43,323 nt of DNA from Thiotrichales bacterium (GCA_012961935.1 DTYI01000133.1:1-43323); one strand, 5' to 3'; counted from the stretch's first letter, positions 10,947 through 17,260 are shown. The notes: generated by a model not told the origin, from the letters alone. Translations and numbers: made by a program.

Positions 10947-12131
10947 TTATCGTTTGGAATAATAATTTGCTATGTCCTGAATTTCAGATTCCATCAGGGG
11001 CAAAGACATTTTGTGCATGGTGCTCATGTCGCGGCCATCACCCTGATAAGCATGCAGTGCCCTGACAGTATAGTCAGCGCGCTGGTTGGCCAGGCGGGGA
11101 TATCCCGGACGTTCGCTCTTGCCATCCTCGCCGTGACAGCGATTACATTTCTCAGCCCAGGCTTCTGCGCTGAGAGCCTCGCGCGTGACTTCAGCCTCAC
11201 CACCTGCACCGGGGGCGTGTCGCGTATTGGATGCGTAGAAGGTGGCAATATTTTCAAGATCGGCGTCACTTAATGCAGCGACCATGCCGGGCATGACAGC
11301 GTTATCACGGCTTCCGTCCTTGTAGCTTTTCATGGCCTTGGCCAGATAAGTCGCATCCTGACCAGCCAGGCTTGGATTTGCGTTTGGGCTGCCGCTATTG
11401 CCGTCGGCTCCATGACAGCCTGCGCAGGTTGCGGCGGCGGCTTCGCCTGCAGTTGCATCGCCGCTGGCAGGCGTGGATGGATTTTCCAGTGGTTGTTCTG
11501 CATAAAATGTCGCGATGGCCTCAATATCCGCATCGCTCAACGCGGCAACCATGCCCGCCATAACGGGATCTTTGCGTTCCTGAGTTTTATAGGCCTTTGT
11601 TGCAGCCACCAGATAGTCTTTACTCAATGCCGCCAGGCTGGGTGTGCCGGGTAATGCACTGACGCCAGTTGCACCGTGACAGCCTGCACAGGCTGCCGCC
11701 GCTGCAGGTGCAGCAGCCTGTTCTGCTTCTGCTTGCTCAGGTTCTTCAGCCACTTTTACAGGCTCGGGATTGGTGTTGATGTCAGGCCCGGGCAGGCTGG
11801 CATAATAACCGGCGATATTGGCGATATCCTGCGCGTTGAGTTCTGCAAGGGCAGTTGCCATTACTTCATCCTTGCGTGTTTTGTCCTGATAGGCCTGCAT
11901 GGCGCTACGTAAATACTCAGCATGCTGACCCGCCAGGTGTGGCGTTTCAGCAGTGGAACTGATGCCATTTGAGTTATGGCAACCTGCACAGGCCTTGGCA
12001 GCGGCTTCACCTGCGGCGATATCAATTTTTATTTTGGGGGTCTCAGGTTGCGTCTCGGTCTGTTTTTCAGGCTCATTGCCACAGGCCGTCAGTAAAAATG
12101 CCAGTGATATGACGGGGAAAATAATTTTCAT
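10947..12131 (-). CDS. Tetrahaem cytochrome c4/c553-like lipoprotein
   Basis: Lipobox LTAC; CAGCH three times plus CNRCH, each followed by a P.LA.(Q/L)...Y segment and a distal Met; Ala/Pro/Glu linkers. Confidence 0.9.
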   Translation of the reverse strand: MKIIFPVISLAFLLTACGNEPEKQTETQPETPKIKIDIAAGEAAAKACAGCHNSNGISSTAETPHLAGQHAEYLRSAMQAYQDKTRKDEVMATALAELNAQDIANIAGYYASLPGPDINTNPEPVKVAEEPEQAEAEQAAAPAAAAACAGCHGATGVSALPGTPSLAALSKDYLVAATKAYKTQERKDPVMAGMVAALSDADIEAIATFYAEQPLENPSTPASGDATAGEAAAATCAGCHGADGNSGSPNANPSLAGQDATYLAKAMKSYKDGSRDNAVMPGMVAALSDADLENIATFYASNTRHAPGAGGEAEVTREALSAEAWAEKCNRCHGEDGKSERPGYPRLANQRADYTVRALHAYQGDGRDMSTMHKMSLPLMESEIQDIANYYSKR

Positions 12132-12389: not shown

Positions 12390-13154
12390 ATGACTCGAAC
12401 AAATCATCATCATTTTCTTGCCTTGCCTCTAAGTTTGCGGATGGTCTATACCATGACGCTGGTGGTGCTGGGCCTGGGCTATCTATTTGCCATGATCCAT
12501 ATTTTTTCATCACACGCAGGGCGTGATGGTAAAGCAAGCCTGTCAGTGCAGGATATCATGATCGCTTATAGCGGTAGTGAAAGCGATACGAAGCTCGAGT
12601 CCGCGCTTAAAGGACCGATGCAAAGTATGCTGCCACCAGCAGAATCCCATGAGATTATTGCATGGGTGCGTGCAGGTGCGGATCAGGCTGCTTACGAAAA
12701 AGATGTTGCGGGTATTGTAAAGAACCGCTGTCTGTCTTGCCACGATGGTAGCAATCCGCATATCCCCAATTTATCTGATATCTCCGGGGTGATGCCGCTG
12801 GTTGAGAAAGATACTGGAATGGATATTTTCACTCTGGTCAGGGTGTCGCACATCCACCTGTTTGGTATTACATTTATTTTCTTTATCACCAGTATCATTT
12901 ATACGCATGCTCATGTGCGCCCGCTGTGGTTTAAATGTATCGTAATTGTTGTACCTTTTCTGACGATTATTTTTGATATTTTGTCGTGGTACCTAACAAA
13001 AATGTGGACACCTTTTGCCTGGGTGGTGTTAATTAGTGGCGCCTTCATGGGACTGTCATTTGCGATTCAGGCTTTCACCTCGCTCTATCAGATGTGGCTA
13101 TATAAAATGCCACCAGACCTTGAAGAAAGCGGTGGGCAGTTACCTGTCTTGTAA
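12390..13154 (+). CDS. Integral membrane protein with one CxxCH haem-c site and a TM HxH motif
   Basis: N-terminal TM helix, soluble domain with CLSCH, then three hydrophobic helices, the first beginning VSHIHLFG. Confidence 0.75.
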   Translation: MTRTNHHHFLALPLSLRMVYTMTLVVLGLGYLFAMIHIFSSHAGRDGKASLSVQDIMIAYSGSESDTKLESALKGPMQSMLPPAESHEIIAWVRAGADQAAYEKDVAGIVKNRCLSCHDGSNPHIPNLSDISGVMPLVEKDTGMDIFTLVRVSHIHLFGITFIFFITSIIYTHAHVRPLWFKCIVIVVPFLTIIFDILSWYLTKMWTPFAWVVLISGAFMGLSFAIQAFTSLYQMWLYKMPPDLEESGGQLPVL

Positions 13155-13577: not shown

Positions 13578-13621
13578 CCTAAAAACTATAGATCATTCCT
13601 GGCCCTGTGAAAAATAAGTAT

Positions 13622-13697
13622 TTAAGGATACTCTGAATAGATCTGGTTGAATTTCAGCCAGCGTAAATCAATCACGACCTATTCAGAGTATCCTTAA
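13622..13697. mobile_element. 76-bp MITE-like element with perfect 19-bp terminal inverted repeats
   Basis: TTAAGGATACTCTGAATAG (13622-13640) and CTATTCAGAGTATCCTTAA (13679-13697), TTAA at both ends, plus an internal hairpin CTGGTTGAA-T-TTCAGCCAG. Confidence 0.55.
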
Positions 13698-13704
13698 TTA
13701 ATAA

Positions 13705-14652
13705 CTACTTTTTCCCTTGTAATATTTCCCGGTAGCTGTGTTCGGCAAACATGGAATCAGACAGATACACGCTGGGTACGCGAATACAATTATTGAAAAC
13801 TTTCGGCCCGTGGATAAAAAGAATTTCGGGTTTGACGTGCACATGCGGCATACCACTTTGCGCCGCAGCCAGCGATTCAAATTCAACCATCACCAGATAT
13901 TGAGCGGGCAGGGTATAACCTTCCCAGACTTCAGCGGTGCGTTTGAGTTTACTGCCGGAACTGTCCTGCATGTCTTCCATGATCGATTCCACTGTGGCGT
14001 GCGCGCTGCCTAATGTGGACAGGCCAATCCGTTTCAGAATCTGGTAGCCGATGACGCCGCTGGTTTCTTTTAGCATATCCATTACCTGCACTTCGGCTTT
14101 TTCGAATTCTTCTTCCTTGCCGTGCTTGATAATGTGTTGCGCCATGACCGTCACCGTTTCGCCAGAATTCAGCGCATAACCGGATGTATCGCCGTTGTTT
14201 TCAAAGCCCATTTTCAGCATCTGATTTTTAGAAATAAGTTTGGGCAGGTCGCTTTTGACGATTCGGTAAACGGGTTCTTCCGGCCCGTCGAGTAGAACGT
14301 CGCCGCATTTTGCGCAGGTATCGACGACCACGTCCTCAAACGTCTCGTGGAAATTTTCGTGCGCTTCCCAACTGTCCCAATAGGTAATCTGGTCAATCCA
14401 GATGTGTGATAACGCCTGACGCATGTCTGAACTGGCGCCCCAGCGCATGCCCATGGGGCAGGCGCCCACCTGTTTCATTAAATCAAAGCCGCTAAAGCCT
14501 GGCGTCAAAGCAGTCGCCAGACACATTTTTGAACTGGCCTGTTTCATCATCTGCATCAGGTTCGGATCGTTCTCGACAAAAACCCGGTTGATGGCAACGT
14601 AAAGGGGAGATTTGGGTTCGCTGTCGAAGAGCTTCTTGAGTACATTAGGCAT
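13705..14652 (-). CDS. sor: Sulfur oxygenase reductase (SOR) family protein, divergent
   Basis: Aligns by eye with Acidianus SOR: YVAIN, KMC(44)..TA..PGF.GF, H98-x3-H102-x23-E126 (GPEEP) iron triad, C113-x2-C116, second-domain H....GKE..FE and QY.V.VE, and C-terminal YREIL. 315 aa. Confidence 0.85.
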   Translation of the reverse strand: MPNVLKKLFDSEPKSPLYVAINRVFVENDPNLMQMMKQASSKMCLATALTPGFSGFDLMKQVGACPMGMRWGASSDMRQALSHIWIDQITYWDSWEAHENFHETFEDVVVDTCAKCGDVLLDGPEEPVYRIVKSDLPKLISKNQMLKMGFENNGDTSGYALNSGETVTVMAQHIIKHGKEEEFEKAEVQVMDMLKETSGVIGYQILKRIGLSTLGSAHATVESIMEDMQDSSGSKLKRTAEVWEGYTLPAQYLVMVEFESLAAAQSGMPHVHVKPEILFIHGPKVFNNCIRVPSVYLSDSMFAEHSYREILQGKK

Positions 14653-14699
14653 GGGTTAATTTTCCTTATTGTTGATCAGGTTGGTGGTTCTATTCTAGC

Positions 14700-14743: not shown

Positions 14744-15847
14744 TTAGGCCATTTCACGGTGGATTCTGACCGGCATCCGTTTCGCGCCCCAATGACCCGG
14801 CTCGGCTTCGAATACGCCTGCGCAAGCCGTACCACATTCCGGGCAGCAGCCGTTTTCATCCAGATTCCAGGCGGTGATTGTGTACCAGTCGCGGCCGATC
14901 AGCTTATGGTTGCATTGATGACAATAAGTGCTTTCACCATCCTCATCGTGTACGTTGCCGGTATAGGCGTAGCGGACACCGTTTTTAATTGCAATCTCTC
15001 TTGCGCGTGTCAGTGTTTGCGGTGGTGTGGCTGGCGTATCCATCATTTTCCAGTCCGGGTGAAAGGCTGAAAAATGCATCGGCACATCCGGGCCGAGATT
15101 TTCAACCACCCACTTTGTCATGGCATCCAGTTCCTCGTCAGAATCGTTGTGTCCAGGAATAAGCAGGGTCGTTGTTTCCAGCCAGCAATCTGTTTCATGC
15201 TTGATATATTTTAAGGTATTCAGTACGGGCTCAAGGTGGCTGCCGGTGATTGACCAGTAGAAGTCTTCGGTAAATGCTTTTAGATCGACGTTCGCAGCAT
15301 CCATATATTTAAAAAATTCTGCCCGCGGTTCGGGGGAGATATAACCCGCCGTTACTGCAACTGATTTAATATTGCGCTCGTGGCAGGCAATGGCTGTATC
15401 AATCGCATACTCCATGAAAATAACCGGATCATTGTAAGTGAAAGCGATGCTTCGACAACCTAACTCCTGTGCTGTTTCTGCGAGTTTTTCTGGTGATGCC
15501 TGATCCATCAGCGTGTCCATTTCGCGGGACTTGCTCATATCCCAGTTCTGGCAAAACTTGCAGGCGAGGTTACAGCCCGCGGTGCCAAAGGAAAGCACGG
15601 ACGAACCCGGCAGAAAATGGTTGAGCGGTTTTTTTTCAATCGGATCAACGCAAAACCCACTGGAGCGCCCGTAGGACGTCAGAACAATTTCACCATTCTG
15701 GTTCGCGCGCACAAAACACAGGCCGCGTTGGCCTTCTTTTAACTTGCACTCGCGTGGACAAACATCGCATTGAACCCGGCCATCATCCAGCTTATGCCAG
15801 TATCGCGTTGGGTGTGTGTTTTCCAGCAGAATTTTTTCTGTATGCAT
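14744..15847 (-). CDS. amrS: AmmeMemoRadiSam system radical SAM enzyme
   Basis: N-terminal C..CPR.C...G.CFVR, DPIEKKPLNHF.PG, radical SAM CNLACKFC, TYNDP, NVDLK, HFSAFHP and C-terminal CxxC pairs. Confidence 0.93.
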   Translation of the reverse strand: MHTEKILLENTHPTRYWHKLDDGRVQCDVCPRECKLKEGQRGLCFVRANQNGEIVLTSYGRSSGFCVDPIEKKPLNHFLPGSSVLSFGTAGCNLACKFCQNWDMSKSREMDTLMDQASPEKLAETAQELGCRSIAFTYNDPVIFMEYAIDTAIACHERNIKSVAVTAGYISPEPRAEFFKYMDAANVDLKAFTEDFYWSITGSHLEPVLNTLKYIKHETDCWLETTTLLIPGHNDSDEELDAMTKWVVENLGPDVPMHFSAFHPDWKMMDTPATPPQTLTRAREIAIKNGVRYAYTGNVHDEDGESTYCHQCNHKLIGRDWYTITAWNLDENGCCPECGTACAGVFEAEPGHWGAKRMPVRIHREMA

Positions 15848-15918
15848 ACTTTAAATATATGCGTTATCGAGCAAATATCAATGCTTGAAAAAAAATTAAT
15901 ACAAGCCATAGTTAAGAT

Positions 15919-16710
15919 ATGGAAAATAGAATACGACAAGCGGCGGTGGCCGGGCTATTTTACCCGGCTGATCCCACCGCACTGTCCTCACAAATTGATG
16001 CGTTTTTAAATGCGGCCGAATGCAAAGAATCATCGCCCAAAGCAATGATTGTTCCGCACGCGGGTACGATTTATTCCGGCCCAGTCGCCGCAAGCGCTTA
16101 CGCGCAGCTAAAAAACATCGGCCATAAAATTAAGCGAGTTATTTTGCTTGGGCCAGCGCATCGAGTTGGTTTTCGTGGGCTGGCTGCACCCAGTCATCAA
16201 TATTTTGAAACGCCATTGGGGCAGATTGAAATCGATCTTGAAGCAGTAAAAAAAATTACAGAGAAATTCCCGCAGGTAATTCTGGATGATCGGCCGCATG
16301 CAGAAGAACATAGCCTGGAAGTTCAATTGCCTTTTTTACAGAAAACACTGGGAAATTTTAAACTGCTGCCACTGGTTGTCGGTCAGGCAACGGCAGATGA
16401 AGTCGCGGAAGTGATTCGTGAATACTGGGGCGGGCCGGAAACATTGGTTGTGATCAGTTCAGACCTGAGCCATTTTCATGATTATGCAACCGCAATAAAA
16501 CGGGATAGTAAAACTTCCGCAGCGATTGAAACGTTGCATGGTGAAATGATTGGCCCGGAAGACGCCTGCGGATTTTTACCCGTCCGTGGCCTGTTGAAAA
16601 TAGCGGAAGAAAAGAATTTAAAAGTGGAAACAATTGACCAGCGAAACTCAGGTGACACCGCTGGCGATAAAAATCGGGTCGTAGGTTATGGCGCTTATTT
16701 ATTTAACTGA
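15919..16710 (+). CDS. amrB: AmmeMemoRadiSam system protein B (MEMO1 family)
   Basis: RQAAVAGLFYP, PHAG..YSG, GPAH, EHSLEVQLPFLQ, SSDLSH, ACG, SGD, VVGY. Confidence 0.95.
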   Translation: MENRIRQAAVAGLFYPADPTALSSQIDAFLNAAECKESSPKAMIVPHAGTIYSGPVAASAYAQLKNIGHKIKRVILLGPAHRVGFRGLAAPSHQYFETPLGQIEIDLEAVKKITEKFPQVILDDRPHAEEHSLEVQLPFLQKTLGNFKLLPLVVGQATADEVAEVIREYWGGPETLVVISSDLSHFHDYATAIKRDSKTSAAIETLHGEMIGPEDACGFLPVRGLLKIAEEKNLKVETIDQRNSGDTAGDKNRVVGYGAYLFN

Positions 16711-17260
16711 CGAACAGCGCAGCCAGTTATTGCAGGTCGCACGAAAATCTATCCACGAGGGCTGTGAGAAAAACGCGCCTTTACCTGTTGATGTGAAAAA
16801 GTTTGAGGCGGCTTTACAAAACAAAGGCGCATCTTTCGTAACCTTGAAAATAGAAGAGGCATTGCGTGGTTGCATCGGCACACTGGAAGCCAGTCGGCCA
16901 TTAGTTCAGGACGTGTCGAGTCATGCTTTTGCCGCAGCTTTTACTGACCCAAGATTTTCGCCCGTCACCCGTGATGAACTGGAATTAATCACCATCAGCA
17001 TCTCCGTTCTGACACCCGCGGAAAAAATTGAATTCAAAGATGAGCTGGATTTGCTGGAAAAAATAAATCCCGGCGTCGATGGTTTGATTCTAGAAGCAGG
17101 CAGGTATCGAGGAACCTTCCTGCCAGCAGTCTGGAAATCGCTACCAGAAAAAATTGACTTTTTACAACAGCTAAAACGCAAAGCCGGGTTGCCGGAAAAT
17201 TATTGGTCAGAAGAGATTAGTGTTTCCCGATATCATACGGTCGAGTTTGCGGAATCATAA
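16688..17260 (+). CDS. amrA: AmmeMemoRadiSam system protein A (AMMECR1 family)
   Basis: FVTL, LRGCIG, AAF.DPRF, ISVL, TFLP.VW, KAG. Confidence 0.95.
   Translation: MALIYLTDEQRSQLLQVARKSIHEGCEKNAPLPVDVKKFEAALQNKGASFVTLKIEEALRGCIGTLEASRPLVQDVSSHAFAAAFTDPRFSPVTRDELELITISISVLTPAEKIEFKDELDLLEKINPGVDGLILEAGRYRGTFLPAVWKSLPEKIDFLQQLKRKAGLPENYWSEEISVSRYHTVEFAES

Follow-up and report, generated by a model that had tools for sequence, protein, structure and literature searches.

A predicted sulfur oxygenase reductase of the Thioalkalivibrio-type clade encoded by a stand-alone gene in a vent-type Thiotrichales bacterium

Introduction

The sulfur oxygenase reductases (SORs) closest to the one analyzed here are the PDB entry 9RDN and the enzyme of Thioalkalivibrio paradoxus (TpSOR; primary paper Ruhl et al. 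2017). According to sections of PMC6382920, TpSOR acts as an oxygenase, its reductase activity is atypically low and its role in vivo is undetermined, and an excerpt of PMC6060420 gives 80 °C for both its optimum and its melting point. Metaproteomics of a biofilm at a marine gas vent detected a gammaproteobacterial Sor protein that was classified as Thioalkalivibrio spp. (section of PMC8056087), and a free-living relative of a ciliate symbiont was reported with sor (passage in PMC10952691). The SOR reaction scheme is outlined in the introduction of PMC7398979, and parts of the same paper cover the roles of channel, Zn-site and pore residues in the S. tokodaii enzyme (StSOR).

Here we describe a sor gene on a stretch of 43,323 nucleotides from a Thiotrichales bacterium (GCA_012961935.1, DTYI01000133.1:1-43323), called the window in the following. 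An initial annotation, made from the sequence alone, had read this gene as a divergent SOR whose catalytic core is intact while its periphery departs from that of the archaeal enzymes, belonging to a poorly characterized clade in which the ratio of oxygenase to reductase activity or the substrate access is possibly altered.

Results

The sor gene and its flanking signals

From the ORF list and its translation, we delineated a sor reading frame with an ATG start on the minus strand of the window. Its features and flanking signals are as follows.

13705..14652, minus strand: sor coding sequence, stop included, for the 315-aa sulfur oxygenase reductase P0001 (ORF list, PF07682, PDB sequence matches, AlphaFold2 model)
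14613..14652, minus strand: codons 1-13, N-terminal extension typical of the clade, in which a short helix is predicted for residues 4-10 (model)
14275..14523, minus strand: codons of the catalytic core, read from the DNA, with residue pairing from HMMER alignments
14523-14521, minus strand: codon of C44, which pairs with Cys31
14460-14458, minus strand: codon of C65, the clade-wide extra Cys
14361-14359, minus strand: codon of H98, which pairs with His86
14349-14347, minus strand: codon of H102, which pairs with His90
14316-14314, minus strand: codon of C113, which pairs with Cys101
14307-14305, minus strand: codon of C116, which pairs with Cys104
14277-14275, minus strand: codon of E126, which pairs with Glu114
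14200..14241, minus strand: codons 138-151, shortened chimney (tetramer-channel) helix-loop segment (alignment to the S. tokodaii and A. ambivalens SORs, and model)
14663..14667, minus strand: AAGGA, Shine-Dalgarno-like motif 10 nt 5′ of the sor ATG, read from the sequence
13619..13700, minus strand: long hairpin followed by a T-rich run directly 3′ of the stop codon, probable intrinsic terminator of sor

The hairpin is an inverted repeat with 36-nt arms that are 81% complementary. Its RNA fold reaches −38.3 kcal/mol (z −6.6), a value that none of 200 shuffles matched, and within the window its 19-nt core is present solely as the two arms; the element is probably the intrinsic terminator of sor. 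When scanned against a promoter consensus, the 91 nt preceding sor gave no promoter-like site; over 3.1 kb the scan returned five sites, with 4.0 expected. The N-terminus of the translated protein carries neither a hydrophobic nor a twin-arginine signal, and the protein is therefore likely cytoplasmic.

Family membership and catalytic residues

The protein matches the Pfam SOR family PF07682 with 216.6 bits (cut-off 25; E 4.4e-64), residues 17-307 covering profile positions 2-299 of 300. A whole-genome scan gave the same PF07682 result and a single SOR copy in the genome. We paired residues through HMMER alignments to solved archaeal SOR chains, 6qne_A (a mutant of the A. ambivalens enzyme) and 6m35_A (the S. 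tokodaii enzyme). In these alignments C44 pairs with Cys31, H98, H102 and E126 with His86, His90 and Glu114, and C113 and C116 with Cys101 and Cys104. By sequence, H98, H102 and E126 match the H-x3-H-x23-E pattern of a 2-His-1-carboxylate iron site. The translation further contains C65, D111 and the motif G123-P124-E125-E126-P127, and the aligned differences from the archaeal chains are D111 for Arg99, GACPMG for GILPFG and GPEEP for GPWEP. Residue 17 of the query pairs with residue 4 of the archaeal chain, which amounts to an N-terminal extension of 13 aa.

All of these features had been named in the initial annotation: the three conserved cysteines and the iron triad at archaeal spacing, an extension of about 13 aa, Cys65, Asp for Arg99 and GPEEP for GPWEP. 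Each was recovered, and with the significant, full-length Pfam match the reading of a SOR with an intact core and an unusual periphery stands. The chimney, said to have no clear match to the Phe-lined archaeal segment, fared differently. The segment does align, with L146 opposite Val137 and F150 opposite Phe141 of StSOR (HMMER), and it forms a helix at residues 142-151 in the model described below; what held of the claim is the loss of the StSOR Phe133 position through a three-residue deletion.

For conservation we used an alignment of 57 sequences (A1), composed of the query, 45 of the 119 other listed matches spread over the identity range, the translations of two Thioalkalivibrio sor genes, the 50%-identity representative of the clade and eight distant representatives of at least 284 aa, with fragments excluded. 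Counts for the clade refer to 49 of these sequences. The eight distant representatives comprise five classical SORs, a label that rests on their Pfam and NCBIfam scores, and three with a long N-terminus. Invariant in all 57 sequences were H98, H102, C116, G123, P124 and E126. C44 is retained by all 49 clade members and by the seven distant representatives that cover the position, C113 in 48 and C116 in 49 of the 49 clade members, and distant representatives that cover the C44, C113 and C116 positions all have Cys there. Position 150 in the chimney is less uniform within the clade (F in 31, A in 11, another residue or a gap in 7).

The NCBIfam equivalog NF047630 (SulOxRed) has a cut-off of 400 bits, which the window protein, scoring 177.4 bits, did not reach. 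The same cut-off was missed by the homologues from Thioalkalivibrio (179.2 bits) and Cocleimonas (181.7 bits), and by three of the four classical representatives scanned (187-249 bits), the fourth reaching 566.6 bits. The model is therefore narrow: it describes the classical branch, in which the window protein is not filed, and the miss has no weight against function.

On these alignments, 13705..14652 encodes a genuine and intact sulfur oxygenase reductase, with a match far beyond chance. Readings as a pseudogene or as a protein other than a SOR were ruled out by the intact frame and the retained invariant residues.

Predicted structure

An AlphaFold2 model built on alignment A1 reached a mean pLDDT of 91.0 and a pTM of 0.91, with one helix at residues 4-10 in the N-terminal extension in addition to the chimney helix. 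In a Foldseek search of the PDB, the ten best matches were all SOR chains, which belong to the enzymes of A. ambivalens, S. tokodaii, A. tengchongensis and H. neapolitanus, with TM scores of 0.83-0.88, rmsd values of 2.8-3.7 Å and 28-29% identity; against 2cb2 and 6qne the TM score was 0.86-0.88. The next match after the SORs was 3gn6 (TM 0.60-0.64), and ferredoxin-like-repeat and small monooxygenase-like proteins scored 0.6 or less. The PDB copy used by Foldseek held entries to 2026-04-08, and 9RDN, discussed below, is not in it. In the model the SOR subunit fold, a beta-barrel with surrounding helices, is present.

A large proteobacterial clade that includes the Thioalkalivibrio enzymes

A homologue search gave 418 matches, and the matches listed represent at least 120 public protein clusters, all at 73% identity or more. 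The named homologues among the matches listed are sulfur oxygenase reductases (or family proteins) from Gammaproteobacteria, Chromatiales, Thiotrichales and Cocleimonas. Relatives with 70-90% identity are encoded at 30 loci of species-representative genomes, including those of Thioalkalivibrio, Thiotrichaceae, Ectothiorhodospiraceae and Chromatiaceae, three MAGs of Alphaproteobacteria and one MAG that bears the label delta proteobacterium. Across 1.84 billion cluster representatives, an exhaustive HMMER scan yielded a total of 63 clusters at 50% identity (E up to 0.001), mostly fragments of the proteobacterial clade together with a handful of full-length sequences at 27-35% identity. Set against this total, the 120 or more clusters at 73% identity and above indicate that the proteobacterial branch dominates SOR sequence space.

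To place the protein, we computed a quick maximum-likelihood tree of 38 sequences: the query, the sequences of all loci except the partial matches L022, L026 and L029 (27 of 30), two further proteins (P0102 and P0114) and the eight distant representatives. The window protein lies inside a tight proteobacterial clade with internal branches of at most 0.24, together with three Thioalkalivibrio sequences. It stands beside the protein of locus L001 (90% identity, SH-aLRT 83), followed by the three Alphaproteobacteria sequences (SH-aLRT 92). The proteobacterial side and the three long-N-terminus representatives split from the five classical ones with an SH-aLRT of 100. The deep nodes involve long branches, one of which separates the proteobacterial clade from the five classical representatives, and only the shallow placement is relied on here.

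Among PDB sequences, the window protein matched 9rdn_A, an entry entitled "Sulfur oxygenase reductase" (313 aa, 8 chains), with 510 bits (E 1.6e-152), compared with 131-151 bits for the classical SORs; the archaeal SORs gave E-values of 1e-37 to 5e-43. The HMMER alignment to 9rdn_A spans residues 5-312 with one gap of a single residue, and 217 of 308 positions are identical (about 70%, counted by hand). We also derived SOR protein sequences from two loci in Thioalkalivibrio MAGs and used one of them as a PDB query; it matched 9rdn with 638 bits and 275 of 307 identical positions (about 90%, counted by hand). By this identity, 9RDN is a Thioalkalivibrio-type SOR, and it very probably represents TpSOR itself or a closely related enzyme. 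A full-text literature search found no paper naming 9RDN and no structural paper on a Thioalkalivibrio SOR from 2023 on.

The window protein itself is 72% identical to the Thioalkalivibrio MAG SORs P0121 and P0122 (221 of 307 positions). The poorly characterized clade of the initial annotation is thus not supported, and the T. paradoxus enzyme, which had been treated there as a separate case, shares it with the window protein. With 9RDN at about 70% identity, the proposed novelty has largely gone.

Signatures of the clade and what they may mean for activity

From alignment A1 rather than from a publication, we defined a set of signatures. The N-terminal extension, Cys65, an Asp or Glu at position 111, the GPEEP motif and the shorter chimney segment are each common to 46-49 of the 49 clade members, which also begin at the same N-terminal position as the window protein. 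Position 65 is Cys in all 49 and in the three long-N-terminus representatives, and Ile, Leu or His in the five classical ones. Position 111 is acidic in 46 of 49 (Asp in 36, Glu in 10); among the classical representatives, one has Arg and the other four have Glu. Glu occupies position 125 in 46 of 49 clade members, and Trp or Tyr in seven of the eight distant representatives. Cys289 is found in 46 of 49 and in two of the eight distant sequences. H173 and H281, which correspond to the StSOR Zn-site residues His166 and His277, are each present in 49 of 49, with His in four of the eight distant representatives at each position. M301 and F302, opposite the active-site-pore residues Met296 and Met297, are kept in 47 and 49 of the 49. 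On this alignment the peripheral peculiarities are clade-wide signatures, and none is private to the window gene.

These residues may bear on the balance of the two activities. The protein could be a fully bifunctional SOR that disproportionates sulfur with an H2S-forming reductase activity comparable to its oxygenase activity, like the enzymes of Acidianus and Halothiobacillus. It has the same fold and every residue known as essential in classical SORs, and the authors of the vent and symbiont studies read such genes in this way in the relevant parts of PMC8056087 and PMC10952691. Against this stand the atypically low reductase activity given in sections of PMC6382920 for the sole biochemically studied member of the clade, and the differences of the clade itself, namely Glu125 beside the iron ligand for Trp or Tyr and the extra invariant Cys65. 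We consider full disproportionation unlikely.

By analogy with T. paradoxus SOR, we instead favor, with some confidence, an oxygenase-dominant behavior of the window protein with little H2S formed. An altered oxygenase/reductase ratio, as proposed in the initial annotation, is a reasonable expectation; an identity of about 70% does not ensure that the ratio is that of the T. paradoxus enzyme.

A third SOR-like branch, outside the window, was seen among the distant sequences P0128, P0130 and P0131, which are 32-35% identical and have long N-terminal extensions. Before the aligned region these comprise about 47 aa in P0128 and a cysteine-rich stretch of about 165 aa in P0130, with no Pfam domain. 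In this branch the three iron ligands are conserved, as are the three cysteines and Cys65; both Zn-site His positions are occupied by Phe, and the chimney segment is longer.

Genomic context, host and distribution

We searched ten neighboring window proteins against the 30 related sor loci by tblastn and found none of the ten in any locus, while the SOR was found in 30 of 30. Clustering of 860 ORFs of at least 80 aa from the 30 loci and the 6-kb flanks in the window likewise gave no neighbor family in more than four loci (L005, L006, L023, L025). The larger clusters were the SOR itself and overlapping ORFs in other frames, and several loci are short, which weakens the negative result there. 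A conserved sor operon was ruled out by these searches; sor stands alone.

A complete AmmeMemoRadiSam trio lies at 14744-17260. It consists of a radical SAM enzyme (TIGR04337, 673 bits) on the minus strand and divergent genes for protein B/Memo (270 bits) and protein A/AMMECR1 (209 bits). The radical SAM gene and sor share a strand, and 91 nt separate the end of the former from the start of the latter, a pairing seen in none of the 30 related loci. Downstream of sor lies a gene for an uncharacterized small membrane protein. Further along, 10947-12131 (minus strand) encodes a protein of 394 aa that has four CxxCH haem c motifs and an N-terminus resembling that of lipoproteins; its partial PdsA-like match (113 bits) is below the cut-off. 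Divergent to it, 12390-13154 (plus strand) encodes a membrane protein of 254 aa that contains a single CxxCH and matches no family in Pfam or NCBIfam. Neither of these two was found beside sor in the 30 related loci. A genomic island was considered and rejected: the window contains no tRNA and no GC anomaly (0.46-0.51), and no integrase or transposase family occurs among its 37 ORFs.

The genome comprises 2.75 Mb in 301 contigs and is 95.8% complete. Its contigs C300, C221, C171 and C62 carry SoxB (700 bits summed), DsrA (607 bits) and the RuBisCO large subunit (389 bits), all above cut-off, and an adjacent DsrB-like match accompanies DsrA. At this completeness of 95.8%, no AprA match exceeded the cut-off, and sulfite would therefore have to be oxidized by another route. 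Public sequencing runs containing the stretch are labelled hydrothermal vent metagenomes, and no RNA run is among those listed. One independent study, with possible source samples excluded, contains 0.84 of the sampled words of the stretch.

SOR was present in one of 40 related genomes and in none of three of the same family, which are 71-88% complete. Synteny with the same-family genomes was minimal, with 175 bases of an 8-kb query matched at 73-77% identity, and no insertion site was definable. Three loci (L002, L003, L004) in Hyphomicrobiaceae and other Alphaproteobacteria MAGs encode SORs 80% identical to that of the window, and a 73%-identical SOR is encoded in the MAG labelled delta proteobacterium (L018). 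These copies, together with the occurrence in one of 40 genomes, suggest that sor was transferred as a single gene.

Such a history raises the question of whether the gene is silent or decaying after horizontal acquisition and without present function. Its patchy distribution, the lack of a conserved context and the near relatives at 80% identity in Alphaproteobacteria MAGs would fit. The evidence in the gene itself argues strongly the other way: the frame is intact and full length with all invariant residues kept, the end branch in the tree is short (0.062), the GC content of 0.46-0.51 is like that of the surroundings, and both a Shine-Dalgarno-like motif and a terminator-like hairpin are present. 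We regard a silent gene as highly improbable.

The sporadic occurrence also touches on the substrate. The SOR fold and iron site might be kept while the donor in vivo is another sulfane-sulfur compound, such as protein or thiol persulfides or the polysulfide of sulfur globules, with Cys65 and Cys289 involved; instead of oxidizing sulfur in bulk, the enzyme would then serve in detoxification or in the trafficking of sulfur. In line with this, Cys65 and Cys289 are retained in 49 and 46 of the 49 clade members and Cys65 is missing from the five classical representatives, the genome already has Sox and rDsr routes, the gene is found in one of 40 related genomes and none of three from the same family, and sections of PMC6382920 leave the in vivo role in Thioalkalivibrio undetermined. 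The neighborhood speaks against it, as no conserved sulfur-transferase or carrier gene accompanies sor (ten neighbors in 0 of 30 loci, no shared cluster in more than four). Both this donor and the role tied to it are improbable in our view.

Discussion

The gene most probably encodes a functional cytoplasmic SOR (EC 1.13.11.55 family) of the proteobacterial, Thioalkalivibrio-type clade, as judged from its sequence. By homology, the subunits would assemble as the hollow 24-mer sphere typical of SORs, and zero-valent sulfur or polysulfide would enter via the shortened four-fold channel. The sulfur would be bound as a persulfide on Cys44 and then oxygenated with O2 to sulfite at the mononuclear non-haem iron presumably held by His98, His102 and Glu126, with Cys113 and Cys116 assisting. 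Thiosulfate would arise non-enzymatically from sulfite and sulfur. In a vent-type chemolithoautotroph, the enzyme would provide an accessory route that conserves no energy and turns stored or imported sulfur into sulfite when O2 is available.

One might go further and suppose that Cys65, along with Cys289, has a function in an altered route of sulfur handling, which would account for a branch that oxygenates sulfur with hardly any reduction. This idea is speculative and we hold it to be doubtful. If true, the widespread proteobacterial enzymes would form a "sulfur oxygenase" subclass with a mechanism of its own, passed on as a single gene between sulfur oxidizers of marine and vent habitats. 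The signatures, Cys65 foremost, are easy targets for mutagenesis to explain the low reductase activity of the branch.

The value of the locus is modest and ecological, as a vent-type autotroph that carries Sox and rDsr would have an extra O2-dependent sulfur oxygenase from which no energy is conserved. Public records already carry annotations for the branch, one of its members has been studied biochemically and a structure is solved, and the window gene adds one sequence to it.

Comparison with known sulfur oxygenase reductases

The SORs of A. ambivalens (2CB2) and S. tokodaii (6M35) resemble the window protein in fold (TM 0.85-0.88), in the iron triad and in the three cysteines, and their Zn-site residues His166 and His277 and pore residue Met296 have equivalents in it. 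They differ in sharing 28-29% identity and in having no 13-aa N-terminal extension. They have Ile or Val where the window protein has Cys65, Arg99 for its Asp111 and Trp or Tyr for its Glu125; their chimney residue Phe133 lies opposite its three-residue deletion, and their Met297 pairs with its Phe302.

The SOR of Halothiobacillus neapolitanus (6QPA) is likewise bacterial, from a mesophile, and has the same fold (TM 0.83-0.85). By sequence, however, it belongs to the classical branch, with 29% identity and 136.8 bits compared with 510 bits for 9RDN.

9RDN is by far the most similar. It shares the N-terminal extension (the alignment runs from residue 5 to residue 5), Cys65 in G-x-CPMG, GPEEP, the shortened chimney and the catalytic Cys/His/Glu set. 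About 30% of positions differ, mostly within residues 133-200 (59 of 102 identical in that alignment block, counted by hand), and residue 111 is Thr in 9RDN and Asp in the window protein. The hosts differ as well, the Thioalkalivibrio type being a soda-lake haloalkaliphile and the window host a hydrothermal-vent-type organism. The window protein is a new sequence, and an ordinary one, in a large and already studied bacterial SOR branch with a solved structure.
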